From IMG/VR virus record IMGVR_UViG_3300045988_122441: a DNA stretch of 64,000 nt. One strand, 5' to 3'. Shown one piece after another: positions 100-28,178 of the stretch; positions within the stretch are counted from its first letter, which is position 1; the number at the start of each line of letters is the position of its first letter. The DNA comes from a virus. Both the position numbers and the translations under genes were made by a program. Below the pieces are notes generated by a model. It was not told the origin of the DNA. It worked only from the letters and a program-made list of their open reading frames with translations, and did no database searches.

Positions 100-744
100 A
101 TGGCTAAGAAGAAAAACAACTTTTATGCGGTGAAGAAAGGAAAGAATCCGGGGATATATAAAACCTGGTATGAATGTAGAGCGCAGGTTGAAGGCTTTAG
201 TGGCGCTCTATACAAAGGTTTCACAACCAGAAAAGAAGCTGAGAAGTATCTGAGTTGTAACAATACATCGGAAAAACAGGAGTTAAAAGAAGCTGATGTT
301 ACTATCTATGTTGATGGTAGCTTTGATGAACGATCCGGTGTTTATGGGTACGGGTGTGTTGTTATCAAAAATGATGGGGCTGTGGAAAAATATTACGGAG
401 CTGGTAATAATCCAGAATCAGTCAAGCTGAGAAATGTGGCAGGTGAGATGCTTGCCGCAATGAATGCAGTCAGATACGCAATGCAGAACGGATATAAATC
501 TGTGAATATTTGCTACGACTACAGTGGCATTGAGATGTGGGCTACTGGGGAATGGAAAACAAACAATGCATTAACAATGAAATACGCTCGTGCGATGCAG
601 GAGTGGGGAGAGAAAATCTCAATCATGTTTCAGAAAGTCGCAGCTCATACAGGTGTCGAATACAATGAAGCCGTAGATCAACTTGCAAAATTTGCGGTAA
701 GTAATTTTTGTAAGGAAAACGGTATAGGGAATGAAATGCGTTGA
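100..744 (+). CDS. Ribonuclease H (RNase HI type) with N-terminal hybrid-binding (Cauli_VI-like) domain
   Basis: The N-terminus FYAVKKGKNPGIYKTWYECRAQVEGFSGALYKGFTTRKEAEKYL is typical of the RNase H1 HBD. It is followed by IYVDGSF...GEMLAAMNAV...KVAAHTG..YNEAVDQLAK, an RNase H fold D-E-D-H/D pattern. RBS aacggagg is upstream. Confidence 0.85.
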   Translation: MAKKKNNFYAVKKGKNPGIYKTWYECRAQVEGFSGALYKGFTTRKEAEKYLSCNNTSEKQELKEADVTIYVDGSFDERSGVYGYGCVVIKNDGAVEKYYGAGNNPESVKLRNVAGEMLAAMNAVRYAMQNGYKSVNICYDYSGIEMWATGEWKTNNALTMKYARAMQEWGEKISIMFQKVAAHTGVEYNEAVDQLAKFAVSNFCKENGIGNEMR

Positions 745-984: not shown

Positions 985-2592
985 ATGTTCAGACCAACCA
1001 TTAATTCAACGCCACTGACATCACAGACGGCGAACACTTTTTTCAGAAACATTGGTGGAGAAAGTTTCCACAATGATGTAACATTCATCTCTACATTGAG
1101 AGCATTAGTTGCATCAAGAGTTAGTGAGGGAGAAAGTGTATTTGTTGCATTTAGAAATACCAGCTATTCAAAAAACACTATCGAAGATAATCCGAGTCAT
1201 GCTGTATTAAACGCTATGTATGATCCGCGTGATTACGGAGAGGGAAGCATTATTATCCATAGCTTTGAAGGTAATGCATCAGATAATCTCGCATCGTTCA
1301 AAATTATCGAGAGAGAGTTTGCATCACATAATAGTGGATTTGAACGAATCGTGAAAGTGACCGAATTTTTCAGGAAAACTTTTTATTCTTTGTGCTATGT
1401 AAATCCGGCGGAGCGCAAGGTCGTTATCTTCGTAGACCATCTGAATATTCGCAGAATGCATTATTTACAGTGTGCGATATTCGCCTTTTTACCATGGTAT
1501 TTTGATCCGAATGCAGGAGTTACAGAAGATGAGATGGATTTGATTCAGTCTTTAAGAGAAACTACTCCGGAAAGATATATGGCAGCAATCTCAAAAATTG
1601 CATCTGCATACGATTTCAGAGGTATGCATATCAGAAATTCTCTGAAGGGATTTGAAACGATTTATGAAAAGCATCAGTGTGATTCTCTCAGAAGCAGTAT
1701 CCAGAGTTATATCAGAAAGATTAGAGATTATAACGACCAGATTGCTAATGTATTGAGAAATAAAAATGATGCGGAAATCAGGCTGATGGGGCTGGAAGAG
1801 AAAATCGCAAGACTTGAGGGAGAAGATTCTGAAATCATGGAATACTTCCTTTGCAACACAAAACTCGATTTGGAATATGTCAATGGTTCAGAACTGACAT
1901 TTGTTGTAAAAGATTACCTGATGTATTTCGATGAGGATATGGCAAAAACAATCATTGACAATAATAACAGCTATGTGTACAGACATTCAAGAAGCTTTGA
2001 CCGTGAAGATGTAAAAAAGCTGATGTATGCAATTTTCATCGATCAGGTGTTAAAACTTAGATTTTGCTGCGCTTATACTATCCGCCTTGGTGAAAGAGTA
2101 ACCGGTATGCGCGACTATAGCTATAACGAAAGCTGTGATACATACATCCCGAACCCACATATCGACCGCTTTAGTTGTCTCGGAAACTACGAGAGAACAA
2201 TGAATGAACGGTTGATGGACAACGATGCGATTGGTGCTATCGAGCAGTGTATCAGCTCATGTAAGAGTTTGAACTTCAGTGACAGCACAGTTATGGAAGT
2301 ATTTATGGATCGTATGTGTAGTAGAGATGGATACAGACATAATAAATGCATAGAGCTTCCAGACGGCAATATCGTGGATATGAAGGGTGCAATCGAATGG
2401 ATGAAAGAGCAGGAAAGAGCTGCTCAGGAAGCGGAAGCTCCAGAAGAAGAACAGGAAGAAACTTCAGTTGCTGAAGCACAGGAGCCGACAGAGGAAATTC
2501 CAGTTCCGGATGAAGAAACTGTAGACCACATCGATGAAGATGAAGAAATCGAAGATGACCTCGAATTACTCGAAGAGGATGAATTATTCTAA
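985..2592 (+). CDS. Hypothetical protein (535 aa) with central coiled-coil and strongly acidic C-terminal tail
   Basis: Long ORF with RBS aaaggagg 8 nt upstream. The C-terminus is E/D-rich (EEEQEETSVAEAQEPTEE...DEDEEIEDDLELLEEDELF). No motif was recognised with confidence. Confidence 0.7.
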   Translation: MFRPTINSTPLTSQTANTFFRNIGGESFHNDVTFISTLRALVASRVSEGESVFVAFRNTSYSKNTIEDNPSHAVLNAMYDPRDYGEGSIIIHSFEGNASDNLASFKIIEREFASHNSGFERIVKVTEFFRKTFYSLCYVNPAERKVVIFVDHLNIRRMHYLQCAIFAFLPWYFDPNAGVTEDEMDLIQSLRETTPERYMAAISKIASAYDFRGMHIRNSLKGFETIYEKHQCDSLRSSIQSYIRKIRDYNDQIANVLRNKNDAEIRLMGLEEKIARLEGEDSEIMEYFLCNTKLDLEYVNGSELTFVVKDYLMYFDEDMAKTIIDNNNSYVYRHSRSFDREDVKKLMYAIFIDQVLKLRFCCAYTIRLGERVTGMRDYSYNESCDTYIPNPHIDRFSCLGNYERTMNERLMDNDAIGAIEQCISSCKSLNFSDSTVMEVFMDRMCSRDGYRHNKCIELPDGNIVDMKGAIEWMKEQERAAQEAEAPEEEQEETSVAEAQEPTEEIPVPDEETVDHIDEDEEIEDDLELLEEDELF

Positions 2593-2605
2593 GGAGAGAA
2601 TGAAT

Positions 2606-3550
2606 ATGAGTAAACTGATTAAATTGCCGCAGGATATTCTCGATCAGTATACAAAGGAGTTTTATGAAACTCTGAGATCGGGAAAATTTTCAGATGGGAA
2701 GGTAAACTTTACAAAGACACTTGGGACTGTTGATCGAAAAGCAACAGTCCTTTTTACTAAGATGGCATGGGAGAAAATGCAGCTGCTTGTTAAAGAATTT
2801 GATAAGGAAGTTGCATGGCATGGAATTGCAGAGAGATGCGAAGAGAAAGATACATATCTGATTTCAGACATCCTTGTTTATCCACAGGAAGTAACGGGTT
2901 CTACAGTTACAACAGATCAGTCCAAATACGAAAACTGGCTTATGTCACACGATGACGAAGTGTTTAATAACATTAGAATGCAGGGGCATTCACATGTAAA
3001 TATGGCGGTAAGCCCATCAAGTGTGGATTTGAGTCTGTACGAACGAATTCTGGATCAGCTCAGTAGCGATATGTTCTATATCTTCATGATTTGGAACAAG
3101 CGTGGTGAAAAGACTGTAAAAATCTATGATCTCAGAGAGAATATCCTGTTTGAAACAGCAGATGTCACAGTGACTATCAAAGGTATGGAAGATATGACGG
3201 AATTCCTTGAAGAGGCAAAGGAATTGGTCGTGACAAAAACATACAATTATGGCGGATACGGAACCGGTGCCCATCCATATCATTATCCGGGCTATGGAGC
3301 TGCAAAAAGAGATGAGTCGAAAGGCGGTGCAAGCCTGGGAAAACATCAGCCCCTTGTGTCAACAGGTAAGAAAAGCAAAGGGCGCAAGGGGAAACGTAAG
3401 AAAGACAAATCAACTGGAAAACAGATGAGCATGGCTGATTATGGATATCCCGGTTGTGGCGATGATGACTATGATGACACAGATATTCATGGCGGAGTCA
3501 ATGGATATAACGACGAATACTGGAGACGCCAGTATGGGTTCGACTATTAA
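2606..3550 (+). CDS. JAB/MPN (JAMM) metalloprotease-domain protein with Gly/Lys-rich C-terminal extension
   Basis: Complete JAMM signature: upstream Glu (EVAWHGIAER) plus GHSHVNMAVSPSSVD, which matches H-x-H-x7-S-x2-D. The start was chosen at the ATG with RBS aaggag 9 nt upstream; the track ORF begins earlier, inside the upstream gene. Confidence 0.8.
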   Translation: MSKLIKLPQDILDQYTKEFYETLRSGKFSDGKVNFTKTLGTVDRKATVLFTKMAWEKMQLLVKEFDKEVAWHGIAERCEEKDTYLISDILVYPQEVTGSTVTTDQSKYENWLMSHDDEVFNNIRMQGHSHVNMAVSPSSVDLSLYERILDQLSSDMFYIFMIWNKRGEKTVKIYDLRENILFETADVTVTIKGMEDMTEFLEEAKELVVTKTYNYGGYGTGAHPYHYPGYGAAKRDESKGGASLGKHQPLVSTGKKSKGRKGKRKKDKSTGKQMSMADYGYPGCGDDDYDDTDIHGGVNGYNDEYWRRQYGFDY

Positions 3551-3563: not shown

Positions 3564-4052
3564 ATGACCAGAGAAGAATTTCAAGAGAATGTAAATAGCT
3601 GGTACGACCTTAGAGAGTTTTGTAATGAATATGGCTGCGAGGTATGCAGTGATATTTATTCACAGGACGAAATGGACGAGGAAATCGATAATAGTATCGT
3701 AGATATGGCAAGAGAAGCGACGGATTGGAGAGATTTATTATCGAAATTAGAGGACATTCCTACTGAAGATGAGTATTACATAAAGAATGGATATGGTGAT
3801 TTCACGGAAGTAGATGAAGAAGATTTCGATTATCACAAAGATGATGTCTTTGATTGGGCTGAGAATGAAGGTGTCTTCGACGAGGAAGATGAAGAGGATG
3901 AAGAGCCAGAGGAAGAATCAGAAGAAGATATCGAAGAACCGGAGGAACCAGAAGACCCTGATGATGGATATGAGGTAGGAAATGAGGAAATGTCTATCGC
4001 AGAACTTTTCGTTGTACCGAACAATGGAAAAAGAGGAATATATAACGTTTAA
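3564..4052 (+). CDS. Hypothetical highly acidic protein
   Basis: ORF with RBS aaggtggtg. It contains long runs of D/E (EEDEEDEEPEEESEEDIEEPEEPEDPDD). Confidence 0.6.
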   Translation: MTREEFQENVNSWYDLREFCNEYGCEVCSDIYSQDEMDEEIDNSIVDMAREATDWRDLLSKLEDIPTEDEYYIKNGYGDFTEVDEEDFDYHKDDVFDWAENEGVFDEEDEEDEEPEEESEEDIEEPEEPEDPDDGYEVGNEEMSIAELFVVPNNGKRGIYNV

Positions 4053-4067: not shown

Positions 4068-4739
4068 ATGGATTTAAGTAAATCATATGAATTTTTTCAG
4101 CCAGAGAAGGATAAAGCAAGAATCCACATCGTAGGATGTGGTTCCGTTGGATCAACAGTTGCAGAAAACCTTGCAAGATGCGGTGTAACAAAGATAACTC
4201 TGTATGACTTTGATAAAGTTGAACCGCATAATATCGTAAACCAGATGTTCGATCAGAACGACGTAGGAAGACTGAAGGTGGATGCACTGAAGGATATCCT
4301 TACAGACATCAATCCAGAAATCGCAGATCAGATCGAGGTGAAACCAGAAGGATGGCAGGGAAAATTAATGTCTGGATACATCTTCCTGTGTGTGGATAGC
4401 ATCGAACTGAGAAGAGAGATCGTTGAAAAGCATATGGACAGCCCGTATGTAAAAGCGGTATTTGATTTCAGAACCCTTCTTGAAAGCGCACAGCATTATG
4501 CAGCTGACTGGTCTGATTCCAAAATGAAGAAAGACCTGCTGAACTCGATGCAGTTCTCACACGATGAAGCTAAGGATGAAACCCCTGTATCTGCTTGTGG
4601 TGTAACTCTTGGCGTAGCAACAACAGTGCGATTGATTTCAGCTCTTGGAGTGAACAATTACATTAACTTCGTAAAAGGAGAAGGAATCAAGAAGATGATT
4701 ATCATGGACGGGTTCAAATTTGACCTTCTGGCATTCTAG
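4068..4739 (+). CDS. ThiF/MoeB/E1-like adenylation-domain protein (short, no catalytic-Cys domain)
   Basis: IHIVGCGSVGSTVAENLARCGVTKITLYDFDKVEPHNIVNQMF matches the Rossmann GxGxxG plus D-x-D...N..RQ pattern of E1/ThiF adenylation domains. The protein is only 223 aa. Confidence 0.8.
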   Translation: MDLSKSYEFFQPEKDKARIHIVGCGSVGSTVAENLARCGVTKITLYDFDKVEPHNIVNQMFDQNDVGRLKVDALKDILTDINPEIADQIEVKPEGWQGKLMSGYIFLCVDSIELRREIVEKHMDSPYVKAVFDFRTLLESAQHYAADWSDSKMKKDLLNSMQFSHDEAKDETPVSACGVTLGVATTVRLISALGVNNYINFVKGEGIKKMIIMDGFKFDLLAF

Positions 4740-4741: not shown

Positions 4742-4942
4742 ATGAGGGATAAGCAAAGGATTGACCCGTTCTGTGAAGTCTTATCGGCTGAGTGGAAAAG
4801 AATACCAGACATGAGATTTGGTCAGTTAATGTATAACTTCTTTCACGATGAGTATAACTCTGATCCATTTTATATAGAAGATGCTGAACTGATTAGTAGA
4901 TTTCAAGCATACGTCGATAAGATCAGCAAGAATGTGTATTAA
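4742..4942 (+). CDS. Hypothetical small protein (66 aa)
   Basis: ORF starts 2 nt after the E1-like gene stop and is followed by a strong terminator. Confidence 0.5.
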   Translation: MRDKQRIDPFCEVLSAEWKRIPDMRFGQLMYNFFHDEYNSDPFYIEDAELISRFQAYVDKISKNVY

Positions 4943-4951
4943 AAGTGAATG

Positions 4952-4978
4952 AACCGCCACCTTGCGTGGCGGTTTTTA
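4952..4978 (+). terminator. Rho-independent terminator
   Basis: Stem accgccac/gtggcggt with loop cttgc, followed by TTTTT. Confidence 0.8.
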
Positions 4979-4980
4979 TA

Positions 4981-5268
4981 AAGAACATGCAATGATATTT
5001 ACCTCTTTGAGGTAGCTTCTTACTGTCAGTGGAAGTAACAACTTGATAAGGAAAAGAACAGAGGCGACAGAGAAAGCGGAGCACGCCGGAAGAACGTCGA
5101 ACTTCAGAATCAACTGATTCTGTCGAACGATCCAAATAACAAATTACCAAGTTAAAAACAACTAATGAACTGGTTATCAACGGATTACACTACCTGAGAA
5201 AATAAATACATGTCAGGAGGAGATCATCCGGGATACAGCCCATACATACATTAGATTGCGAAGTTCTT
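4981..5268 (+). ncRNA. Structured element A of a 4-member paralogous family (candidate RT-associated ncRNA)
   Basis: Closing helix aagaac-at-gcaat (4981-4993) pairs with attgc-gaa-gttctt (5255-5268). Invariant G at 4994. Hairpin 1 is tacctc-ttt-gaggta (5000-5014). Hairpin 2 is cttc-tt-act-gtc-agt-g-gaag. The 3' motif catacattag is conserved. It ends 13 nt before the RT start codon. Confidence 0.7.
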
Positions 5269-5281
5269 GAAAGGAGAAGAT

Positions 5282-6421
5282 ATGTACTACATTACAGTAA
5301 AACAGCCTCCATCATACCATCAGATGACATTAGAAGAGTTTCTTTTTGGAGGTAACGTACAACCAGAATTAATCAATGAAAATCTTACGAATACCAGAAC
5401 ATATGAGGTTGAAAATGTAAGCGAAAGATTTCTTCAGCTTGTTGATATAGATAAGCTTATTGCCAGACTTGTGTGGTTTAATGAGAGAACCGAATACTTA
5501 CGAGAGAAGCCAAGACGTGAATGGTATTATGAGTTCTACATTCCAAAAAAGAGTGGCGGTCTTAGAAAAATAGATGCACCAGAACCGGAATTAAAAGAAG
5601 CACTTAGCACGCTGAAGAATATTTTTGAGATAGATTTTAAAGCACTTTATCATACATCTGCGTTCGCATATATAAAGAAGAGAAGCACTCTTGATCTGCT
5701 GAAGCGTCATCAGGCAAACGAGAGTAAATGGTTTGAGAAATTGGACTTATCTAATTTCTTTGGAAGTACAACAATGGAATGGGTTCTCCATATGTTTTCA
5801 ATGGTTTTCCCATTCTCAGAAGTTATGAAAGACGAAAAAGGTAAGGCAGAACTTACAAAAGCACTTGAACTCGGATTCCTGGATGGCGGTCTTCCACAGG
5901 GGACTCCATTGTCACCAACTGTTACGAATATCATGATGATTCCGGTTGATTTCAAAGTTGCCAGAGAATTAAGGGAACATAATCATCAGAGATTTGTATA
6001 TACCAGATATGCTGATGATTTTCAGATTTCATCTAAATATAGTTTCAGTTTCATGGAAATCCAGAATGTAATAGTGTCTATCTTAAAGGATTTCGATGCA
6101 CCGTTTACAATCAAGAGTGAAAAGACACGATACGGATCATCGGCGGGACAGAACTGGAATCTCGGTCTTATGTTAAATAAGGACAACGAGATTACAGTAG
6201 GTCATAAGAAAAAGAGACAGTTCCAGGCAATGCTTTCTTCCTATATTATGGACAGGAAAAATGGAATTGCTTGGGATAAAAATGATATTCAGACAATGGA
6301 TGGGTATCGAAACTATTACCGAATGGTTGAGCCGGAAACGATTGATGGAATCGTTAGACATCTCAGCGAAAAATTCGGTGTTGATATCATAAAAGCAATT
6401 AAGGAAGACCTTACGGCTTAG
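5282..6421 (+). CDS. Reverse transcriptase, RT domain only (retron/retron-like type)
   Basis: RT motifs in order: YIPKKSGGLRKIDAP (1), SAFAYIKKRS, KLDLSNFFGST (A), GLPQGTPLSPTVTN (B), YTRYADDFQISS (C, YADD), IKSEKTRYG (D), NLGLMLNKDNEITVGHKKKRQF (E). No maturase, endonuclease or other fused domain. The start was taken at the ATG with RBS aaaggagaag. Confidence 0.85.
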   Translation: MYYITVKQPPSYHQMTLEEFLFGGNVQPELINENLTNTRTYEVENVSERFLQLVDIDKLIARLVWFNERTEYLREKPRREWYYEFYIPKKSGGLRKIDAPEPELKEALSTLKNIFEIDFKALYHTSAFAYIKKRSTLDLLKRHQANESKWFEKLDLSNFFGSTTMEWVLHMFSMVFPFSEVMKDEKGKAELTKALELGFLDGGLPQGTPLSPTVTNIMMIPVDFKVARELREHNHQRFVYTRYADDFQISSKYSFSFMEIQNVIVSILKDFDAPFTIKSEKTRYGSSAGQNWNLGLMLNKDNEITVGHKKKRQFQAMLSSYIMDRKNGIAWDKNDIQTMDGYRNYYRMVEPETIDGIVRHLSEKFGVDIIKAIKEDLTA

Positions 6422-6478
6422 GCTGTAGGTCTTCTGAGGTATTAAAAGGTATAAATAGGCATCATTTAGGAGAATATT

Positions 6479-6700
6479 ATGCTATATGGTAACGATGACA
6501 TTAAAGTAGATGGCGAGGACTATGCTATAGCATTACGCAATCTTGAACAAAAATATGGTTATGATGAGGATATCGAAACGATAATTAAAATGTGTAAGCA
6601 ATGGGAAAATAGTTTTCATAAATTAGAGAACAGATATCACAAATTAGTTATGGAAACAGCTATATTTGAAGCAAAAATCCGTAAAATCACAGCGGAATAA
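6479..6700 (+). CDS. Hypothetical small coiled-coil protein (73 aa)
   Basis: ORF with RBS aggaga 7 nt upstream, immediately downstream of the RT. Confidence 0.5.
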   Translation: MLYGNDDIKVDGEDYAIALRNLEQKYGYDEDIETIIKMCKQWENSFHKLENRYHKLVMETAIFEAKIRKITAE

Positions 6701-6739
6701 TCATCAATATTTATATCTAACTATAACAAGAAAATAAAA

Positions 6740-7001
6740 TCTATGCAATGAAATTACTGTTTTACAGTGCTTTTAGCTGTCAGCGAAAGTAACACCTTGA
6801 GAAGGAAAAGAACCACCTCCCAGCCAGCTGCCACGAGCTTCCTTCCAGGATCCAAACAAACAATATCAGAATCACTAGACATCAACATAATCCAACCACT
6901 GATTATCAATCACCTACAAATAGGAAATGTTCAAAGAACTAGATAACCAGTGAGATGCTCCTGAATTCTCAAGAAGACATACATACATTAGATTGCATAG
7001 A
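6740..7001 (+). ncRNA. Structured element B of the 4-member family
   Basis: 10-bp closing helix tctatgcaat (6740-6749) / attgcataga (6992-7001). G at 6750. Hairpin 1 is actgt-ttt-acagt. Hairpin 2 is cttt-ta-gct-gtc-agc-g-aaag. 3' motif catacattag. Confidence 0.7.
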
Positions 7002-7004
7002 AGC

Positions 7005-7292
7005 AAATGTACAATGAAATTATATCCTTTGGATATGCTTTTAGCCGTTGGCGGAAGTGACAACTTGATAGGGAAAGGAGAAGAGCACCCCGTGCTGCTG
7101 AGGCGCCTAAATCATGATCTTCAGATCCTGGTAAGGTTCCGAACAATATCAAACGAAGATAAAATCACGATAACGTCCTGATAATCAATAAGTTCATACG
7201 CAATCTTCACTCATTTCTGCAAATCAAAGATCTGCGTAGCTAAGCTGAAGACTCATCGAGGACATCACCATCGTACATCAGATTGTACATTT
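7005..7292 (+). ncRNA. Structured element C of the 4-member family (3 nt after element B)
   Basis: 11-bp closing helix aaatgtacaat (7005-7015) / attgtacattt (7282-7292). G at 7016. Hairpin 1 is atatcc-ttt-ggatat. Hairpin 2 inner stem is gcc-gtt-ggc. 3' motif gtacatcag. The 62-aa track ORF inside it has no RBS. Confidence 0.7.
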
Positions 7293-7322
7293 TGGATAAA
7301 TTATATTCAAGGAGGATAGAAT

Positions 7323-7781
7323 ATGTATTTTAACACAAACATCAATTTAATAAGGGTTCCTAGAGTATTCAGTGGCTCTCATCCAAACGAGGATAAGATG
7401 AATGCATGTAGAGCCTACTATAGAGAAAATCACAAAATCGATAGAGATATCGTGGTTGACGAAAATATGCAGCTCAAGGATGGATACATCGGATATCTGG
7501 TTTTGAAAGAAAACAACGAGTCTGTAATTGGAGTCAAACAGACGGAATCAGGTAAAACGACTCTTGTATATGGAGTTCATCCAGGCGTAGACAAAGAGTA
7601 TTGCTGGAAAGTAGTTGATGATACAGAGGATAGACTGAATCTTAATGTTGGATCACATGCTATTGTAAGAACAAAATTCGGAGATGAAGAAATTCTTATC
7701 ACAAGAATTGAGCGTGTTTCCAAGGCTAAGAAGAAAAAGATGGGACACTTAAAAAGAGTCGTAAGATGTCTGGCGGAGTAA
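7323..7781 (+). CDS. Hypothetical protein with ParB-N-like 'L-x-DGY' segment followed by a small beta-rich module
   Basis: RBS aaggagga. IVVDENMQLKDGYIGYLVLKENN resembles the ParB/sulfiredoxin-type DGxxR/Y segment. The C-terminal KEYCWKVVDD..VGSHAIVRTKFGDEEILITRI recurs at the N-terminus of ORF 18058-18513. Confidence 0.6.
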   Translation: MYFNTNINLIRVPRVFSGSHPNEDKMNACRAYYRENHKIDRDIVVDENMQLKDGYIGYLVLKENNESVIGVKQTESGKTTLVYGVHPGVDKEYCWKVVDDTEDRLNLNVGSHAIVRTKFGDEEILITRIERVSKAKKKKMGHLKRVVRCLAE

Positions 7782-7955
7782 CAGTATGAGATGTGTTTAC
7801 TTAGAAAAGAAAGAATTTCTTTCAAACGAAGACAGACGTATTCATACAGCTTGCATATGCAGAAATAAAAAGTGTGCGAAATATAAAACTTTTAGCCTGG
7901 ATAAAGCATACATATGCGGAAATTGCTTGCTTCATGCTAAGGAAAGAGAGGAACA

Positions 7956-8522
7956 ATGAATTTTTATATAGCCGATATGCATTTTGGTCATAAGAATGTG
8001 ATCAGATATGACAATAGACCATTTGATTCTATCGAAGAAATGGATAAGGCAATGATTACACTGTGGAATGAAACTGTCGGAGATAATGATGTTGTTTATA
8101 TTCTCGGCGACTTTAGCTGGTATAAAGAAGAAAAGACGGCATTTATTCTTGGATGCCTTAAAGGACACAAGGTTCTTATCAGAGGGAATCACGACCATAT
8201 TTCTCCAAAAGTCGCAAGACACTTTGAACGGATTTGTGAATATGCAGAAATCAAAGATGGAGAAGAAAAAGTTGTCATGTCTCACTATCCAATGCCTTTC
8301 TGGAATGGTCAGCACAGAAACAGTATTCATTTGTATGGTCATGTCCATAACTCACATCAGTATAATTACTGTCTGAGCATTGAGAAGGAGTTGCGTCAGT
8401 TACAGGATATCCCGATGAGAATGTTTAATGTTGGGTGTATGATGACGTATATGAATTACATGCCGAGAACATTAAATGAAATTTTGGAAAGCAAAGGAGG
8501 TACAGAGGATGGACAGAAGTAA
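7956..8522 (+). CDS. Calcineurin-like metallophosphoesterase
   Basis: Motifs IADMHFGH, GDFS, RGNHDH, SHYP, YGHVH. Confidence 0.8.
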   Translation: MNFYIADMHFGHKNVIRYDNRPFDSIEEMDKAMITLWNETVGDNDVVYILGDFSWYKEEKTAFILGCLKGHKVLIRGNHDHISPKVARHFERICEYAEIKDGEEKVVMSHYPMPFWNGQHRNSIHLYGHVHNSHQYNYCLSIEKELRQLQDIPMRMFNVGCMMTYMNYMPRTLNEILESKGGTEDGQK

Positions 8523-9537: not shown

Positions 9538-10824
9538 ATGGGATATAAAGATATATATAAATTGCAGGAAATTGGGGGAGCAAAAGCCAAATGCGATTTC
9601 ATAAAAGAACACGCAGATGATGGATATTTTAAAAGATTTCTATATTTTGCGTTGAATCCGTTAATTACATACAATATATCGAAAAAATCACTGGATAAGC
9701 TTGTGACTGAAGAGGGTACAGAGGGTCAAAAGCTTATCTTTTTTAATGATATTTTCGAGTGCTGCGAACACCTTTCAAGATTGAGAAGTATGGATGATGC
9801 AACATTACGGCAGGTAAAAATGCTGTTAAATGTGAAATATTCCGATAAGGCAGAAAGAGAGTTATATATGCAACTGCTCTCAAAGACAGTACGTCTCGGT
9901 ATTACAGGTAAGACCATTAACAAGATCATTCCGAATCTTATTCCTGAATGGGAAGTACAGCAAGCTTATCCGGTTGATAAGTATCCTTTGAAAGAAGGAA
10001 CAGAATTCTGGTTGACACAGAAGCTCAACGGAGCAAGAGCAACCTTATATGAAGGTCAGCTGCTTGCAAGAAGTGGTATGCCATACAAAGGTCTGGAACA
10101 TATCACTTCTGCATTGTCCTGGTTAAGAGTGGCAGGATTCGTTGCTGACGGAGAATTGACACTCAAAGACAAAGGAAATCTGAGTGATAACGAAGCGTTT
10201 AGAGTTGCAACTGGAGTTCTCAACTCGGATAGTGTTAATAAAACGGTGATTTGCTACACGATTTTTGACATGATTCCAATCAGAGATTTCGATTCACCTG
10301 CTCCACAGACTACATATCGTTATCGTCGAGAGATTCTGAATCAGTTCGCCGAAAGGATTGATGATACGAATGGCGCGGTTAAGGTTCTGCCTGTTTTGTA
10401 TCATGGAAACGATCAATCCAAAATAGATGAGCTTTTGGAACAGATGGTTCGTGAGGACAAAGAGGGACTGATGATTAATACGGATGTTCCATATAGAAGA
10501 ACACGACATAAAGGTATTCTTAAAGTAAAGAGATTCTATACTATGGACTTACCAATTATCAGATGTGAAGGTGGAACTGGAAGACTGAAAGGGACTCTCG
10601 GAGCTTTTGTTCTGGAGTACAAAGGTAATGAGGTCAAAGTTGGTTCTGGATTCACTGACGAACAAAGAGAAAAATTCTGGCGAGATAGAGATGATCTGAC
10701 AGGAACGCTTTGTGAAGTAAAATATAAAGAAATTTCACAGGATAAGGGAACTGGGCTTGAAAGCTTGCAGTTCCCCGTTTTTGTAGGATTGAGAACAGAT
10801 AAAACAGAAGTAAGTTACGGATAA
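9538..10824 (+). CDS. ATP-dependent DNA ligase
   Basis: Nucleotidyltransferase motif I KLNGAR (KxxG), motif IV EGLMIN, motif V LKVK. OB-domain pattern GAFVLEYKGNEVKVGSGFTDEQRE. Confidence 0.85.
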   Translation: MGYKDIYKLQEIGGAKAKCDFIKEHADDGYFKRFLYFALNPLITYNISKKSLDKLVTEEGTEGQKLIFFNDIFECCEHLSRLRSMDDATLRQVKMLLNVKYSDKAERELYMQLLSKTVRLGITGKTINKIIPNLIPEWEVQQAYPVDKYPLKEGTEFWLTQKLNGARATLYEGQLLARSGMPYKGLEHITSALSWLRVAGFVADGELTLKDKGNLSDNEAFRVATGVLNSDSVNKTVICYTIFDMIPIRDFDSPAPQTTYRYRREILNQFAERIDDTNGAVKVLPVLYHGNDQSKIDELLEQMVREDKEGLMINTDVPYRRTRHKGILKVKRFYTMDLPIIRCEGGTGRLKGTLGAFVLEYKGNEVKVGSGFTDEQREKFWRDRDDLTGTLCEVKYKEISQDKGTGLESLQFPVFVGLRTDKTEVSYG

Positions 10825-12637: not shown

Positions 12638-12937
12638 ATGAATAATGCAATGAAATTTATATGTCGGCTTACCTCGAATGGAGCAAATCAAGGTGTTATT
12701 GATTCATTTTCTGGATCTAATAGCTATTGGTTTGCTTCTATTTTATTCAAAAGATTTATTAGAAATAACGCAACCATCATGTATGATCCGAAGAACCAAT
12801 GCTTTGGAACTCGTATAGGCACGAGGGTATACGACGTGACCGGAGATGTTACAGAAAATCATAAATGGATTTCATGGTTGGAATACTCTAATAAAGCATC
12901 CAAAGAGAAAATCACAAAAGAAAATATTATGTTTTAA
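12638..12937 (+). CDS. Hypothetical protein (99 aa)
   Basis: ORF with RBS agaggtgg upstream. Confidence 0.5.
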   Translation: MNNAMKFICRLTSNGANQGVIDSFSGSNSYWFASILFKRFIRNNATIMYDPKNQCFGTRIGTRVYDVTGDVTENHKWISWLEYSNKASKEKITKENIMF

Positions 12938-13191
12938 ACCGTAATGATATTACTGCTTTGCAGTGCTTCTTACTGTTAGTGGAAGTGACACCTTGAGAAG
13001 GAAAGGAGGAGACGCCTCCAGCACGGCAGGCGCTGCCGCATCCGGATCAGACCCAGAAGACTCCGACGAGAAATCGATAAATTAACCATAACACACTGAG
13101 AATCAATAATCCCCATACCAAGTCGAGTCTCCAGATGCGCGGGATACCGGCGATGAATTCCAGGTTACCGTACATTAGATTACAGTTTAAA
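12933..13191 (+). ncRNA. Structured element D of the 4-member family
   Basis: Closing helix tttaaac-c-gtaat (12933-12945) / attac-a-gtttaaa (13179-13191). G at 12946. Hairpin 1 is actgc-ttt-gcagt. Hairpin 2 is cttc-tt-act-gtt-agt-g-gaag. 3' motif gtacattag. Confidence 0.7.
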
Positions 13192-14010: not shown

Positions 14011-16224
14011 ATGAGAGTTTTACTGTTATTAAGAGGAAGCGCCGGATGCGGAAAATCAACATGGATTGAGCAGAACGGGTTAAAGCAGTATGCATTATCT
14101 GCTGATGATATCCGAATGATGTATTCAAGCCCTCAGATGATGCCGGATGGAACACACGCAATCAATCAGTCAAATGACGGAGTAGTATGGAAAACACTGT
14201 TTAATATTCTGGAAACTAGAATGAGAAATGGAGAGTTTACAGTAATTGATGCCACAAACTCCAAAACAGCTGAGATGAATAGATACAAGAAGATGTGTGA
14301 CGAATACAGATACAGAATGTTTTGCGTTGATTTTACTACGATTCCGATTGAAGTTACAAAGGAAAGAAATCGTGGACGGCAGGAGTTGAAAAGAGTACCG
14401 GAGGAAGTAATCGATAAGATGTATGCAAGATTTGAGACACAGAAGATTCCGTCTGGTATCAAGGTCATTCAGCCGGATGAGTTAAACGCTGTGTTTATGA
14501 AGAAATTTGATCTGAATCAGTATAAGCGCATCCATCATATTGGAGATATTCATGGATGTAGAACTGCACTGGATACATATTTCAAGATGAATGGCGGATT
14601 CAAAGATGATGAGTTTTATATCTTCTGTGGCGATTACACAGATCGTGGAATTGAAAATGCAGATGTCCTGAAATTCCTCCTTTCAACCTACGATAAGCCG
14701 AATGTTTTACTGCTTGAGGGGAATCATGAACGGTGGTTATGGGACTGGGCGCATGACAAAGTAAGCAATTCAAAGGAATTTGAGTTCCATACAAAAGCTG
14801 AGATTGAAGATGCCGGAATTGACAAGAAATCAATCAGAAAGCTTTACAGAAGAATGGGACAGTGTGCTTACTATGAGTTTCGTGGCAAGACAGTCCTTGC
14901 TACTCATGCAGGATTGAGCTTCATCCCAGAGAATTTAACTACAGTCGCTACGAGTCAGATGATTAAGGGCGTTGGAAGATATAATGATGCCGAGCAGGTC
15001 GCATCTACCTTTGCTGAAAAGATGGGCGATGGATTCTATCAGGTTCATGGTCATAGAAATACCAAAGGTCTTCCGGTAAAAGTCAACGCTCATGTCTTCA
15101 ATCTTGAAGGCAGAGTTGAGTTTGGTGGAAATCTGAGAGCCGTTATCCTCGATAACGATGGGGCTTTCGTCCCTGTTGAGGTACAGAATACCGTCTTAAG
15201 AGAGCCTGAGAAATTAGAGTCCAGTGCTGACTCTGTCGGTGAGTGGATTTTTGAATTACGTCGTAATAAATACATCAAAGAAAAACAGTACGGCAATATT
15301 TCATCTTTCAACTTCACCAAAACAGCGTTTTATGACAAAATCTGGGACGAACAGACAACAAAAGCAAGAGGATTGTACATCGACATTCCAAAGCAGAAAG
15401 TTGTAGCCAGAGCATACGATAAGTTCTTCAATGTGAATGAGCGTCCAGAAACAAAACTTGAGATGTTGCATGACAAGCTGTCATTCCCAGTGAGAGCGTA
15501 TGTTAAGGAAAACGGATATCTCGGAATCGTTGCGAATAATCCAGAAACAGGAGAGCTGTTTGTGACAACGAAATCCAATCCGGAAGGAGCATTCGCAGAA
15601 TGGTTTATGGAGGCACTTCAGAAACAGCTCGGCGAAGAAACGCTTGACAAAGTAAATGAGTATTCAAAAGAGCATAACGTATCCTTTGTGTTTGAAAATG
15701 TAGACATGGAGCGTGACCCGCACATCATCAAATACCCAGAAAGTAAAGTATTTCTGCTTGATATTGTAGTAAACGATATGAAGTTCCAGAAGCTGAGCTA
15801 TGAGGATATGTGTGACGTGGCTGACTCAATGAATATTCCACATAAAGAGCTTGGCTATGAGATCGATACATGGCAGGAGTTCTTTGACTGGTACAACGAA
15901 GTGATGGTAGAAGATTACAGATACAACGGAAGACTCATTGAAGGATTTGTGGTTGAAGATTCAGATGGATACATGGTTAAGCTGAAACTGGCATACTACC
16001 ATTTCTGGAAGTTCATGAGATCTATCGCTCATGAGGCAATCAGAAAAGGCTATATCGACCCGAAGAGAACATCAGCACTGGTTACTCCTATTGCAAATCA
16101 GTTCTACTCATGGGTAAAAACACTGCATGATGTGGAAGATGTTGACAGTGTCCCGAGGGATATTTGTACTCTGAGAGATATGTTCTATGAATCCGACTCC
16201 GGTAAGAAATTCAAATATGAATAG
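14011..16224 (+). CDS. Pnkp-type RNA repair enzyme: polynucleotide 5'-kinase / 2',3'-phosphatase / ligase-like adenylyltransferase
   Basis: N-terminal P-loop GSAGCGKST. Central lambda-phosphatase-type motifs GDIHGC, GDYTDRG, GNHE, THAG, GHRN. C-terminal nucleotidyltransferase motif I VKENGYLG (KxxG). The three-domain order matches bacterial Pnkp. Confidence 0.8.
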   Translation: MRVLLLLRGSAGCGKSTWIEQNGLKQYALSADDIRMMYSSPQMMPDGTHAINQSNDGVVWKTLFNILETRMRNGEFTVIDATNSKTAEMNRYKKMCDEYRYRMFCVDFTTIPIEVTKERNRGRQELKRVPEEVIDKMYARFETQKIPSGIKVIQPDELNAVFMKKFDLNQYKRIHHIGDIHGCRTALDTYFKMNGGFKDDEFYIFCGDYTDRGIENADVLKFLLSTYDKPNVLLLEGNHERWLWDWAHDKVSNSKEFEFHTKAEIEDAGIDKKSIRKLYRRMGQCAYYEFRGKTVLATHAGLSFIPENLTTVATSQMIKGVGRYNDAEQVASTFAEKMGDGFYQVHGHRNTKGLPVKVNAHVFNLEGRVEFGGNLRAVILDNDGAFVPVEVQNTVLREPEKLESSADSVGEWIFELRRNKYIKEKQYGNISSFNFTKTAFYDKIWDEQTTKARGLYIDIPKQKVVARAYDKFFNVNERPETKLEMLHDKLSFPVRAYVKENGYLGIVANNPETGELFVTTKSNPEGAFAEWFMEALQKQLGEETLDKVNEYSKEHNVSFVFENVDMERDPHIIKYPESKVFLLDIVVNDMKFQKLSYEDMCDVADSMNIPHKELGYEIDTWQEFFDWYNEVMVEDYRYNGRLIEGFVVEDSDGYMVKLKLAYYHFWKFMRSIAHEAIRKGYIDPKRTSALVTPIANQFYSWVKTLHDVEDVDSVPRDICTLRDMFYESDSGKKFKYE

Positions 16225-21364: not shown

Positions 21365-23956
21365 ATGAATGGATTAAGCAGCAAGGAGGTTCTGGAGAGT
21401 AGAAAGCTTTATGGCAGTAATAAGCTTCCGGAGCCGGAAATGAAAAAATGGTATGACTTTGCAAAAGAAGCGTTGAGTGAAAAAATTACAATGATTTTGA
21501 TTGCAATCGCTGTTCTGCAGTTATTCCTTGGTTTCATGGGAGTGATGGAGCTTTCTGATCCGATCATGATTCTTGTAGTCCTTGCAATCGTAACTGGCAT
21601 TGCTGTGAAAACTGGTCTTGGCGTACAGAAATCAGCAGCAGAATTACGGGCAAAGACGGCAGTCAGGTATTGTGATGTGATTCGTGACGGAAAGGTTCAG
21701 ACAATCAATAAGGATGAATTGGTAGTAGGAGATATTGTATGCATTGGAATGGGACAGGAAATTTTTGCAGATGGTTACATCATTGAAGGTAAAATTTCTG
21801 TAAACAATGCAGCAATCAATGGAGAAACGAAGGAGTGTAAAAAATCCCCTATTCCGGGATACATACATGCAAAAACAACATCTACATCTGCCTATACAAA
21901 CCAGAATTGTCTTTTCGCAGGAACCACAGTTATGGCTGGCGAAGGAAAAATGATTGTTACTGATGTCGGTGTTAATACAGTCAACGGAGATACGATGGTT
22001 AAGATGCAGACACTGGAATCTCCAAAGACGGCACTTGACATTGCTCTGGATAATCTGAGTGATTTCATTTCAAAATGGGGGACAATCGCAGCAGTTATTA
22101 CATTCGCAGTTCTTACAGGAACTGGGATCATCAAAGTCGGATTTAGCAATTACTTTGGTGGAAATATTCTTGAAGTAATTCAGAAAATTGCACAGAACTT
22201 TTCTGTGGCATTAACAATCATTGTTGCCGCAGTACCTGAAGGGCTTCCGCTTATCGTGAAATTGGTAACGAAACAGAATGTAAAGACAATGGAAACGTTC
22301 AACATTCTGGCAAAGAATCCGGGAAAGATCCCAGAACTTGCTTATGTAGACATTATTTGTACTGATAAGACAGGAACGCTGACCACAGGTGTTATGACAC
22401 CAAAGAAAATCATTGATGGATTTGCTGATGAGGTGGATACATCATCGGAACTTTGGAACAATATCGTGGCGAATATTTGCTTGAACAACAGTGCGGTATT
22501 TGATGGAAACGGAGAAATTACCGGAGGCAATTCAATCGACAGAGCAGTGTTGACGCTTGTAGATTCTGATGAATATCAAAAAGTACATGACACTTTACAC
22601 GTTAAAGCTAAACAGGTTTTCAATAGTGCAAATAAATATTCAGCAGTGACTTGCGAAGACAACACTTCCTATTATAAAGGCGCTCCAGAGAAACTGGTTG
22701 AACGATGTACAACAGCACTCGGAGATGGCATTCAGACTTTTACTGATAGTGACAAGGTAAGACTTCTGGAAAATATTAAAATCATGACAATGAGTGCGAT
22801 GAGATGCATTGCTTTGGCAAAAGCAGATGGAGAACTTGTTGAAAATGAACTTCCGAACAACATGACATTGCTCGGCATCATCGGTGTTGTTGATCCGGTC
22901 AGAGCCGAAGTACCAAAGGCTGTGGCAATGGCGCATAAAGCAGGTATTCAGGTAATCGAAATTACTGGTGACTGCCTTGAAACTGCAAAGGCAGTAGCAG
23001 AAGAATGTGGAATCTACATGTATGGTGACTTAGCAATCACAAATGATGAGTTTGAGGCGATGTCAGACGAAGAAGTGAAAGGTATTATTCCTCGGTTGAG
23101 AGTTATTTCCAGATGTTCACCGAACACAAAACTGAGACTGGTGACTCTTGCTCAGGAGATTGGAAAATCTGTAGCTATGACTGGAGATGGAGTGAATGAT
23201 TCTCCAGCACTGAAGAGGGCAGATGTCGGATTTGGAATGCAGGGCGGATCTGATGTTGCAAAAGAAGCATCAGATATCGTACTGACTGATGATAATTTTG
23301 CAAGTGTAGTAAAAGCGGTTGAGCTTGGAAGAACGTTCATGCACAACATCATGATGTTCCTTGAGTTCCAGCTTCCGATCAATATTGCACTTCTGATTCT
23401 AAGCGTGATTTATCCAATGGTTGCGACAGGTGCGCTTCTTGCATCAGTTCAAATTCTGATTGTCAATATCATAATGGATTCTCTGAATTCACTATCCTTC
23501 GGCGGAGAGCCTCCGAAAGAAGAATATATGTCAGAAAGACCTATTAAAAAGGGTTCTGGTCTATTTATCAGAGGGGCGAAAAAGCGGATCGCAATTAGCA
23601 CTGCAGCATTTATTGCACTGTATGGAATTATCACTTTCAGCCCGGTAGCAAATATATTTGCATCAGATATCGAATCTATGACAGCAAGATTTGCTCTGTT
23701 ATGCTTCATGGCAGTGTTTAATGGATTCAATATCCGTACAGAGCATATGAATTTGTTTAACGGCATTAGTAAAAATAAGCTGTTTTCATACATTGCAGTT
23801 GGAATTTTTGCGATGACAGTTATTTTGTGTGATTTCGCAGGAGCACTTATCAAAACTACGGCTCTTAACCCGCACCAGTGGCAGGTAGTTGTTGCGCTTG
23901 CGTTCATGGTTATCCCAATCGATCTTATTAGAAAGATTGTTGATAATAGAAATTAA
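21365..23956 (+). CDS. P-type ATPase, type II (Ca2+-transporting, PMCA/SERCA-like)
   Basis: Phosphorylation motif ICTDKTGTLT, TM4 VPEGLP, hinge MTGDGVNDSPALKRADVGFGM, actuator region, and about 10 predicted TM segments. Confidence 0.9.
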   Translation: MNGLSSKEVLESRKLYGSNKLPEPEMKKWYDFAKEALSEKITMILIAIAVLQLFLGFMGVMELSDPIMILVVLAIVTGIAVKTGLGVQKSAAELRAKTAVRYCDVIRDGKVQTINKDELVVGDIVCIGMGQEIFADGYIIEGKISVNNAAINGETKECKKSPIPGYIHAKTTSTSAYTNQNCLFAGTTVMAGEGKMIVTDVGVNTVNGDTMVKMQTLESPKTALDIALDNLSDFISKWGTIAAVITFAVLTGTGIIKVGFSNYFGGNILEVIQKIAQNFSVALTIIVAAVPEGLPLIVKLVTKQNVKTMETFNILAKNPGKIPELAYVDIICTDKTGTLTTGVMTPKKIIDGFADEVDTSSELWNNIVANICLNNSAVFDGNGEITGGNSIDRAVLTLVDSDEYQKVHDTLHVKAKQVFNSANKYSAVTCEDNTSYYKGAPEKLVERCTTALGDGIQTFTDSDKVRLLENIKIMTMSAMRCIALAKADGELVENELPNNMTLLGIIGVVDPVRAEVPKAVAMAHKAGIQVIEITGDCLETAKAVAEECGIYMYGDLAITNDEFEAMSDEEVKGIIPRLRVISRCSPNTKLRLVTLAQEIGKSVAMTGDGVNDSPALKRADVGFGMQGGSDVAKEASDIVLTDDNFASVVKAVELGRTFMHNIMMFLEFQLPINIALLILSVIYPMVATGALLASVQILIVNIIMDSLNSLSFGGEPPKEEYMSERPIKKGSGLFIRGAKKRIAISTAAFIALYGIITFSPVANIFASDIESMTARFALLCFMAVFNGFNIRTEHMNLFNGISKNKLFSYIAVGIFAMTVILCDFAGALIKTTALNPHQWQVVVALAFMVIPIDLIRKIVDNRN

Positions 23957-24548: not shown

Positions 24549-24566
24549 GAAAGGAAGTACAGGAAT

Positions 24567-25139: not shown

Positions 25140-25258
25140 TGCAGAGAAATTTGAATACTTGAAGAAGAATCCAGATAGATTCCTTGAGAATTTCTTCGGG
25201 ATTAAATTCTTTTGGTATCAGAGAATTTTGCTGAAAATAATAGCAAAGGAGAAGAGAC

Positions 25259-28149: not shown

Positions 28150-28178
28150 TTTTAATCTAAGAAAGGGCGGCAGTTATT

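Follow-up and report, generated by a model that had tools for sequence, protein, structure and literature searches.

The question raised by this locus is whether a reverse transcriptase (RT) encoded by a phage and the RNA elements around its gene form a retron-type system, and whom such a system would serve. Retrons are understood as bacterial defence systems, in which a single RNA and a single RT are combined with an effector. The window, i.e. the whole stretch of 64,000 nucleotides of viral DNA that was analysed, represents a common gut phage of Lachnospiraceae, and the initial annotation had described it as carrying a retron-like arrangement of a non-coding RNA and an RT that lacks an adjacent effector. 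The features of the window that bear on this question are compiled in Table 1.

Table 1 Features of the window around the RT gene and the four RNA elements (A to D).
Feature	Position	Strand	Evidence or remarks
RNase H1 with N-terminal hybrid-binding domain	100..744	+	Pfam Cauli_VI 1.5e-20, RNase_H 1e-12
Protein X, 535 aa, first gene of the cassette	985..2592	+	conserved upstream of ThiF and RT
JAMM/MPN+ metallopeptidase-like protein	2534..3550	+	motif across homologues
E1-like ThiF-family adenylyltransferase	4068..4739	+	Pfam ThiF 1.7e-25
Terminator-like hairpin, then T-run	4952..4979	+	read in the sequence; promoter/hairpin scan
Element A, msr-msd-like RNA in the RT leader, about 273 nt	4988..5260	+	covariance model, folding, comparison
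Element A, 5' arm TGCAAT	4988..4993		followed by G4994
Element A, hairpin P1	5000..5014
Element A, hairpin P2	5016..5035
Element A, GUAACAACUUGAUAAGG	5035..5051
Element A, variable core	about 5055..5170 and 5190..5228
Element A, conserved box	5171..5188
Element A, 3' box CATACATACATTAG	5241..5254		last base G5254
Element A, 3' arm ATTGCG	5255..5260
Predicted retron-lineage RT, 379 aa	5282..6421	+	motifs, Pfam, profile and structure matches
73-aa ORF between RT and element B	6479..6700	+	no conserved partner
Element B	6740..7001	+	arms TCTATGCAAT/ATTGCATAGA; G6750, opposing G6991
Element C	7005..7292	+	arms AAATGTACAAT/ATTGTACATTT; G7016, opposing G7281
152-aa ORF, DUF5839 C-terminus, led by the B-C tandem	7323..7781	+	Pfam DUF5839 3.3e-7
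Element D	12936..13188	+	10-bp stem, one C.A mismatch; G12946, opposing G13178

The RT had been described as a protein of 379 aa with a YADD box, in which region 7 reads NLG instead of VTG, and indeed both YADD and NWNLG are encoded by ORF 5282-6421. D155 and the YADD box (residues 243-246) are invariant across the RT family. Clustered at 50% identity, the family amounts to 441 clusters (E below 1e-30). The statement that the protein carries no extra domain agrees with the Pfam result, where RVT_1 is the only match, but a conserved N-terminal extension of about 70 aa is present relative to the solved retron RTs. The position of NAXXH (region X) is occupied by LLKRH, or by AVKRH in the relatives, and that of VTG (region Y) by NLG. 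If both motifs are required of a retron RT, the phage enzyme does not carry them in full, with xxxxH left of NAXXH and xxG left of VTG; the two residues that it keeps, H and G, are the most conserved ones of these motifs (Mestre 2020).

All of the 25 top PADLOC matches of the RT are retron RT models, including RT_II-A with 2e-47 across the full profile, and the C-terminal 80 aa, when searched alone, match retron models only. Likewise, the 12 best matches of a PDB sequence search are retron RTs, and the six best Foldseek matches of the AF2 model are retron I-A RTs, with TM scores of only 0.41-0.50 for a model of mediocre quality (pLDDT 63.6). The NCBIfam model retron_St85_RT (NF038233) scores 169.6 bits, which is under its curated cut-off of 235. 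From the profile, PDB and Foldseek matches, the RT is predicted to belong to the retron lineage.

The RNA element in front of the RT gene is one of exactly four copies found when a covariance model was run position by position along the entire window, which bears out the three further paralogues noticed in the initial annotation. Common to all four are a covarying terminal stem, which has one G per strand at the inner end, two covarying 5' hairpins (P1 and P2), a 3' box that is conserved and an A/C-rich core that varies. The 3' part had been called divergent and msd-like, which is true of the core, but the extreme 3' end is conserved. In addition, element A does not end 13 nt before the RT start codon as previously stated, since its 3' arm stops 21 nt before the ATG. 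The terminator-like hairpin with its T-run ends 9 nt upstream of element A, and the same layout is found in relatives. Element C starts 3 nt past element B and ends 30 nt ahead of the ORF at 7323, and element D is followed after 22 nt by a 72-aa ORF at 13211; distal fourth copies are also present in three relatives (L162, L163 and L169). The RNAs range from 250 to 370 nt in length, with three to four of them per RT.

The conservation of the stem and the hairpins exceeds chance by far. In the terminal stem and P2, 94.6% of the cells pair compared to 75.5% in shuffles, and pairing drops to 29-43% when the partner is slid; both sides change in 13 of 18 pairs, a level that was reached by 0 of 500 shuffles. 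The terminal stems, which measure 5-13 bp, show changes on both sides in nine of their ten pairs, in agreement with the a1/a2-like variable inverted termini proposed earlier. The msr-like, stem-loop-rich 5' part is equally confirmed: based on 59 distinct sequences, 93.3% of the P1 and P2 cells pair, changes are compensatory in 13 of the 14 pairs, and P1 folds in 34 of 34 sequences. Many of the pairs in the stem, P1 and P2 are G.U, and the fold is therefore specific to the gene-sense strand. Elements in the relatives were collected with a loose motif pattern, whose matches arose mostly by chance, followed by a profile filter. The conserved G, which had been noted 3' of the 5' arm, proved to have a counterpart: when elements were searched for without demanding a G, 133 of the 152 distinct ones carried a G on each of the two inner stem flanks. 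Two opposing Gs at the stem are a feature of retron msr-msd RNAs (Mestre 2020).

The folding energy of the whole elements in the window is not clearly better than that of shuffles (z of -0.4 to -2.2), and full-length consensus folding recovers the terminal stem, P1 and P2 only. No long msd hairpin was found by folding elements A to D, and no core structure is common to the relatives, whose cores are unalignable between clades. The retron-like arrangement of RNA and RT is thus retained with regard to the RT matches, the covarying stem, the Gs and the hairpins, but not with regard to a long msd hairpin.

Every genuine element copy that could be checked adjoins an RT of this family, and no carrier lacking the RT was found among the relatives checked. 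This co-occurrence is not fully independent evidence, because all carriers are related phages with a conserved gene order. P2 identity among paralogues amounts to 0.826 within genomes versus 0.677 between genomes (permutation p<0.0005), and lineage-specific P2 variants are common to the paralogues of one genome, i.e. they evolve in concert, which fits a single protein partner common to all copies. Whether the RNA is located upstream or downstream of the RT depends on the lineage, but the link between the two is kept. Two distant relatives (L236 and L237), whose RTs are 38-41% identical, possess a single RNA positioned after the RT, with arms of 15-17 bp, opposing Gs, short 5' hairpins, of which CUCUUGAUGUCAUCAGGAG is similar to P2, and a long msd-like stem (z = -9.3). 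Judged by this predicted anatomy, the distant relatives carry canonical msr-msd RNAs.

The notion that the RT lacks an adjacent effector is probably wrong, since a conserved set of genes is located directly upstream, whose products are candidate effectors only. The cassette has the order X, JAMM peptidase, E1-like ThiF protein, RT and RNA(s), with the RT unit last. In all relatives whose upstream sequence reaches far enough, X, JAMM and ThiF precede the RT, and in the deepest relatives they form a tight operon with it. Among 67 loci with an X homologue, ThiF and RT follow downstream in all 66 that extend far enough, and ThiF adjoins the RT wherever there is enough upstream sequence. In the window, the ThiF gene is directly upstream of element A; its protein, which is present in identical form on at least 1000 contigs, has UBA5, MoeB, MccB and Cap2 as best PDB matches and reaches 1e-20 with the E1-E2 models of PADLOC. 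The JAMM-like protein (2534..3550), which has no match in Pfam, displays the motif QEVTG ... GHSHVNMxxPSSxD, which is invariant across homologues including those of L236 and L237, and the true start of its gene is likely near 2606. Protein X has no sequence match in Pfam, PADLOC or PDB, and its AF2 model (pLDDT 84.6) has no fold match in PDB. None of the three, i.e. the E1-like protein, the JAMM peptidase and X, is known to be a retron effector. The RT itself was considered as a substrate of the E1-like protein and ruled out, because the C-termini of the RTs vary.

The RNase H1 with a hybrid-binding domain at 100-744, also reported in the initial annotation, is supported by both of its Pfam matches; it could trim RNA/DNA hybrids and is regarded as context. 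On the other side of the RT, the 73-aa ORF is present at 6479-6700 as described, but it is neither the sole neighbour nor conserved in close relatives: no tblastn match was obtained in 12 related loci checked, including one with 97% RT identity (L005). The stretch is only 31-50% identical to that locus, yet it is present in another one (L010). At the position of the DUF5839 ORF, other clades encode a metallophosphoesterase.

We consider it probable, on the basis of the sequence comparisons described above, that the region is a phage-borne retron-derived reverse-transcription unit, in which one RT would serve several template RNAs. The retron-like reading holds for the predicted features of the RT and of the RNA, whereas cDNA synthesis and function are proposed by extension. 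Element A would act within the RT's own 5' leader, and B, C and D within the leaders of other early genes. The end pairing of each RNA would set G4994, or its equivalent, opposite the second G, and the RT would recognise the conserved 5' domain, which consists of the P1 and P2 hairpins and GUAACAAnUUG, and would prime, retron-style, on the 2'-OH of the G at the branching position. Copying would then start at the conserved 3' box and proceed backwards into the A/C-rich, variable core, and three to four different RT-DNAs could be produced by one enzyme. The use of the G for priming, the length of RNA that would be copied and the function of the cassette are put forward here by analogy. The cassette has a fixed position in every relative examined, unlike sporadic defence genes, and therefore probably serves the phage itself; its role might be counter-defence or conflict, or an RT-dependent control of the genes behind the elements, and the protection of a lysogen seems less likely.

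A different purpose of the same reaction is conceivable, namely an RT-dependent leader switch in the style of type VI hybrid RNAs, in which reverse transcription of the leader would alter the translation or stability of the downstream gene; we regard this as unlikely. The precedent is Retron-Vpa2, where a hybrid RNA joins the template to the coding sequence of a repressed effector and the msDNA derepresses translation, i.e. the cDNA acts on gene expression and not as a free antitoxin (10.1101/2025.10.22.683967). The phage elements are alike in that the putative template would form part of the mRNA of the downstream gene: element A is the leader of the RT itself, a Shine-Dalgarno-type ribosome-binding site and its ORF follow 84 of 121 distinct elements at a distance of 11-30 nt, and 32 of the 121 abut the next element, although repression in this geometry is only hypothetical. 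Retron-Vpa2 differs in that it is bacterial, has one RNA and involves a small toxin in addition to an HTH protein, a pair that was not recognised in the phage. Moreover, the downstream genes vary by clade (DUF5839 protein, phosphoesterase, small ORFs), the ribosome-binding site is located outside the conserved structure, and the RNA follows the RT in L236 and L237. This switch overlaps with the preferred retron-derived unit, the sole difference being what the cDNA is for.

Still less probable are explanations in which the RT does not act on the elements or does so in another manner. If the elements were RT-independent structured leaders, such as mRNA stabilisers, processing sites or binding sites of another protein, they would have only ancestry and position in common with the RT, which we consider improbable. 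Their constant placement as 5' leaders, the non-RT genes behind three of the four copies and the promoter scan, in which sigma-70-like sites were fewer than in shuffles and none was positioned to drive the elements, are compatible with this explanation, and the RT linkage may reflect the common ancestry of the carriers. However, end pairing with two opposing Gs is a retron-specific architecture, and homologous canonical msr-msd RNAs appear to adjoin the distant RTs. The earlier suggestion of a leader that happens to precede the RT is further weakened by the co-occurrence with the RT, no RT-less carrier having been found among the relatives checked, the concerted evolution of P2 and the persistence of the link when the RNA moves behind the RT. 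A DRT2-like system, also raised in the initial annotation, in which an upstream RNA templates rolling-circle concatemeric cDNA encoding a new gene, is disfavoured and in our estimation very improbable: an RNA of about 270 nt does precede a domain-minimal RT and pairing does join its two ends, but NCBIfam Drt2 scores 36 bits (residues 202-283 only; cut-off 390) versus about 170 bits for the retron model, the DRT2 structure is only 49th in Foldseek, core indels are not multiples of three, and there is no conserved ORF in the core. The known DRT2 and DRT9 systems (UG2, UG28) resemble the phage locus in having a domain-minimal RT beside a structured RNA of a few hundred nt and differ in their RT clade, and no sign of rolling-circle templating or homopolymer synthesis was seen here. 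The least probable origin, which we judge to be highly improbable, is a DGR, the remnant of a group II intron or a small mobile element with inverted repeats at its boundaries, as might be suggested by the hypervariable core with its A-rich interior and by the terminal inverted repeats. The element cores have no antisense or template/variable match above shuffled sequence within the 64-kb window, which therefore contains no template/variable repeat pair. The RT is outside the DGR and group II clades (TIGR04416: 81.8, cut-off 300), Rfam returned no intron or other family for the elements (whole window at gathering thresholds; 4900-7400 at permissive E-values), copies are syntenic in all relatives, and the G.U pairs indicate an RNA fold and not a DNA element.

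Among known systems, retrons, especially types I-A and II-A, resemble the phage unit in the RT including the C-terminal region Y, in an RNA contiguous with the RT, in the covarying a1/a2-like stem with opposing Gs, in the short msr-like hairpins and, in the distant relatives L236 and L237 only, in the long msd hairpin. In contrast to retrons, the phage system is fixed in the phage genome with three to four RNAs per RT, its RNAs have an unstructured variable A/C-rich core at the position of the msd hairpin, NAXXH and VTG of its RT are reduced and the N-terminal extension is added, its neighbours are the E1-like protein, JAMM and X, and its msDNA is predicted only. A phage-borne multi-RNA retron was not found in the literature searched.

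UG27 RTs are encoded in over 3800 predicted genomes of gut phages, the hosts of which are Bacteroidetes and Firmicutes, are accompanied by two or three uncharacterised genes that co-occur with them (clusters 346, 337 and 336) and by a predicted structured RNA in the intergenic region adjoining the RT, and were assigned to Class 2 of UG/Abi (Mestre et al. 2022, PMC9226505). In a comparison by description only, the gut-phage setting, the gene count and the RNA beside the RT fit closely, and the phage cassette may be the catalogued UG27 system. However, the UG27 RNA is a single one with three long stem-loops, and ThiF, E1 and JAMM are unmentioned (PMC9226505), whereas the phage has RNA arrays with opposing Gs, ThiF/E1 and JAMM neighbours and an RT that scores as retron, and not as UG/Abi, in every part. 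The retron-like RT scores and the obvious ThiF domain thus argue against identity with UG27. If the cassette were UG27, the retron-like RNA anatomy and the domain identities of the partners would still offer testable handles.

A very abundant lineage of gut phages would carry the retron-type machinery as a fixed part of its genome, which is unusual in itself, and if the RNAs are reverse-transcribed, a retron-type system would be working for the virus. We tentatively extend this to a more specific possibility, which is doubtful but deserves mention: a retron kept by the phage, in which one RT, three to four fast-evolving RNAs, the E1/JAMM module and X cooperate and the RT-DNAs serve the phage. 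The RT-DNAs could then counter ssDNA-sensing or retron-type defences of the host, as decoys or as mimics of an antitoxin, or they could alternatively be RT-driven switches of early genes. In that case, reverse transcription would be linked to a ubiquitin-like module, a host defence would have been converted into a means of offence or regulation for the phage, and the system would be the first example in nature of a retron with several templates. With regard to genome editing, one retron RT for several templates would provide a natural model for multiplexed retron tools.

Concerning the distribution of the system, the host labels of metagenome-assembled genomes were inconsistent and were dropped as a source of host information, and the labelled carriers are therefore probably mis-binned phage contigs. 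No DNA relative of the window was found among GenBank phages, and at the protein level the matches were limited to one 41%-identical fecal contig and unrelated retron-type RTs. In the Staphylococcus jumbo phage PALS_2, a gap is present upstream of its retron-type RT.

Scoring every position of the window with a covariance model of the 5' domain revealed exactly four copies, all on the plus strand, of the retron-like structured RNA (elements A to D), in line with the three further paralogues named in the initial annotation. In each element, the 5' arm gives way to a G and, after a further 4-6 nt, to a hairpin (P1); GCUU and a second hairpin (P2) with a GUC or GUU loop come next, behind which single-stranded GUAACAAnUUG leads into a variable core rich in A/C and poor in G/T. 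The 3' end consists of a conserved box, (A)U(R)UAG, and a 3' arm whose sequence is complementary to that of its 5' counterpart.

Features of the window and of two distant relatives.
Feature	Coordinates	Strand	Remark
X, first gene of the cassette	985-2592		upstream of RT
JAMM-motif protein	2534-3550		upstream of RT
E1-like ThiF protein	4068-4739		upstream of RT
Element A, non-coding	4988-5260	+	upstream of RT
Reverse transcriptase (RT), 379 aa	5282-6421		YADD and NWNLG
Element B	6740-7001	+	paralogue of A
Element C	7005-7292	+	paralogue of A
ATP-dependent DNA ligase	9538-10824
Element D	12936-13188	+	paralogue of A
Kinase, phosphatase and T4 Rnl1-type RNA ligase fusion	14011-16224		Pnkp-like
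RlaP-family protein	28928-30028
NAMPT-type phosphoribosyltransferase	32752-34215		NAD salvage
Class-V aminotransferase/cysteine desulfurase	38026-39225
Canonical retron-like RNA	L236 13789-13973		distant relative
Canonical retron-like RNA	L237 8895-9100		distant relative

Relatives were gathered from IMG/VR by three routes, i.e. the RT protein, sequence motifs and the upstream gene X. For the terminal stem and P2 (n = 34 distinct sequences), 94.6% of the cells pair, versus 75.5% when shuffled and 29-43% when slid, and both sides change in 13 of 18 pairs, which was matched by 0 of 500 shuffles. For P1 and P2 (n = 59 distinct sequences), 93.3% of the cells pair, with 13/14 compensatory pairs; P1 formed in 34/34 when folded independently, with many and different stem sequences. 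A stem search without a G requirement placed a G on both inner stem flanks in 133 of 152 distinct elements, the arms being mostly 8-12 bp long. Since many of the pairs are G·U, the fold belongs to the gene-sense strand and is most likely that of an RNA. No Rfam family matched the elements.

The 3' part, initially annotated as divergent, is so only in its core, since the 3' box is conserved and the 3' arm pairs with the 5' arm. Between phages with RTs 94-97% identical, the core of element A (5100-5220) is 55-76% and that of element C (7140-7260) 66-75% identical, compared to 85-100% in most flanking 60-nt bins. The core lacks a long hairpin, the folding energies of whole elements were not clearly better than those of shuffles (z -0.4 to -2.2), and no core structure common to the relatives was found.

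The RT, with its YADD box, has RVT_1 as its sole Pfam match, in agreement with the initial annotation of no extra domain. Each of the best 25 PADLOC models is a retron RT, RT_II-A matching over its full profile length (2e-47), and the C-terminal 80 residues alone match retron models only; the first 80 residues alone gave no model match. The best 12 hits of a PDB sequence search were retron RTs, e.g. Ec83, Ec78, Ec67, Kva2 and Ec86, and the top six in Foldseek were retron I-A RTs (TM 0.41-0.50 with a mediocre AF2 model, pLDDT 63.6). NCBIfam retron_St85_RT matched with 8.8e-50 and 169.6 bits, below its cut-off of 235. Of the marks of retron RTs, NAXXH and VTG, in which H and G are most conserved (Mestre et al. 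2020), H and G alone are retained: NLG replaces VTG, as already noted, and LLKRH replaces NAXXH. The RT family comprises 441 clusters at 50% identity (E < 1e-30), whose members have about 380 aa, a common conserved N-terminal extension and invariant catalytic residues in alignments; the C-termini are not conserved.

The element lies directly upstream of the RT in 37 of 37 RT-anchored IMG/VR loci, usually with two further elements in tandem just downstream and often with a distal fourth. P2 variants are lineage-specific and common to the paralogues of one genome (identity 0.826 within genomes vs 0.677 between, permutation p<0.0005), a sequence pattern which a single shared, co-evolving protein partner would produce. 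The strongest evidence tying the RNA to the RT comes from two distant relatives (L236 and L237, RT 38-41% identical), in which one RNA follows immediately 3' of the RT. In these RNAs (minimum free energies -99 and -96 kcal/mol, z = -9.3) the arms span 15-17 bp and Gs oppose each other; short hairpins on the 5' side and a long stem-loop are also present, and the architecture agrees with the canonical msr-msd described by Mestre 2020. In another relative (L239, RT 39% identical), three tandem elements with arms of 8-12 bp and opposing Gs lie 3' of the RT (7579-8522), so arrays may be ancient or of more than one origin; in three further loci (L240, L161, L225) the elements are upstream. In Staphylococcus phage PALS_2, a jumbo phage, an RNA partner could lie in an unannotated 1.28-kb gap (605-1883) that precedes a 'retron-type' RT of 500 aa.

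Since position and copy number vary while the link is kept, a leader family independent of the RT, which merely happens to precede it, is hard to reconcile with the data. A motif scan blind to the RT found almost all genuine elements on contigs with the RT beside them, the sole exception being cut by its contig end, and no carrier without an RT, as envisaged in the initial annotation, was found. We regard this explanation as improbable, though it keeps some weight because all carriers are related phages. The alternative of a DRT2-like system is contradicted by the NCBIfam scores (Drt2 36 bits vs 169.6 for the retron model; Drt3a 21.8), and an intron by the group II score (81.8) and the lack of an Rfam match; DGR-like and mobile-element readings were each contradicted by specific tests. 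Taken together, the covarying terminal stem, the opposing Gs and the retron RT matches bear out the retron-like RNA-RT arrangement, and a real, widespread, retron-derived RT-RNA system is well supported.

In the initial annotation no recognisable effector was adjacent, a 73-aa ORF being the only neighbour. This ORF 3' of the RT varies even among close relatives. By contrast, X (535 aa), JAMM and ThiF precede the RT, their order unchanged, in all relatives whose sequence reaches far enough, RT-anchored and X-anchored loci agreeing; in L236 and L237 these three genes and the RT abut or overlap, with the RNA immediately behind them. ThiF matches UBA5, MoeB, MccB and Cap2. The window's exact ThiF (WP_270257972.1, labelled Lachnospiraceae) occurs on at least 1000 contigs, hence the system is abundant, and experiments on it in a cultured host may be feasible. 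The JAMM protein, undetected by Pfam, was assigned by an invariant E ... HxHx7SxxD motif read from the alignment; X has a confident model (pLDDT 84.6) with no known fold relative, and no ubiquitin-like protein was found. Two small ORFs inside the cassette (acidic, 162 aa, 3564-4052; 66 aa, 4742-4942) are variable or absent in relatives, so insertions are tolerated between JAMM, ThiF and RT.

UG27 is an RT of unknown function in >3800 gut phage genomes with Bacteroidetes and Firmicutes hosts, with two or three co-occurring genes of unknown function (clusters 346, 337 and 336) and a predicted RNA of three long stem-loops between the RT and cluster 336 (Mestre et al. 2022, PMC9226505). By the paper's description alone, gene count, gut-phage setting and an RNA beside the RT fit the cassette, and the MAG labels of our loci also span Bacteroidetes and Firmicutes; however, the present RT scores as retron in every part, and the paper never mentions ThiF, an obvious domain here. 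We see roughly even chances that, on this likeness, the cassette is UG27, which lowers any claim to novelty. Most targeted literature searches returned no phage-borne multi-RNA retron. To our knowledge, no description exists of three to four RNAs arrayed per RT, of the retron anatomy of the elements with its opposing Gs, of a fast-evolving core in place of the lost msd hairpin, or of the E1/JAMM identity of the neighbours.

By analogy to retrons, the RT would bind the P1/P2 domain, use the 2'-OH of the inner stem-end G as primer and copy each of the four RNAs, starting at the 3' box and proceeding into the variable core; that RT-dependent cDNA is made from the elements seems somewhat likelier than the opposite. 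The cassette probably serves the phage, since, in contrast to defence genes carried as cargo, it occurs throughout a deep phage lineage and always at the same position. Of 121 distinct elements, 84 are followed after 11-30 nt by a ribosome-binding site with its ORF, and 32 directly adjoin the following element; by this sequence context the elements are always leaders, which makes a type VI-like mode a serious sub-hypothesis. There, cDNA synthesis on the hybrid RNA would alter expression of the gene behind the element, as has been described for the type VI Retron-Vpa2 (10.1101/2025.10.22.683967). In bacterial retron toxin/antitoxin systems the antitoxin is the RT-msDNA complex, which sets its specificity; more speculatively, variable RT-DNAs could act as decoys or antitoxin mimics.

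The window appears to derive from a large phage genome and encodes two tRNAs, a tmRNA (27821-28152, Rfam 93 bits, tag peptide ANRQMLAVA), the RNase H1 with hybrid-binding domain already annotated, DNA and RNA ligases, PolIII alpha, DnaB, NrdD and an endolysin. The Pnkp-like fusion, the RlaP-family protein and the DNA ligase make up a nucleic-acid repair kit, suggestive of a counter to tRNA- or RNA-cleaving defences. The phage may be temperate because a tyrosine integrase is present (59976-61178); in one relative (L162), the RT lies 12-29 kb from the end of a 359-kb MAG contig. Unusually for a phage genome, a P-type cation-transporting ATPase is encoded at full length (863 aa, 21365-23956), and three paralogous ORFs of about 190 aa each stand in tandem at 23970-25840, with internal repeat blocks 64-71% identical. 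The 25-nt motif ATCAAGCTAATWAAATAATTTACAT occurs three times (43117, 47377, 52923; 88-100% identity), its first copy ending immediately 5' of tRNA-Gln, and could serve the phage as a promoter or a regulatory site. A borderline tRNA-like match (727-779) reaches 29 bits, exactly the gathering score; it overlaps the RNase H1 ORF at its end and directly precedes tRNA-Met.
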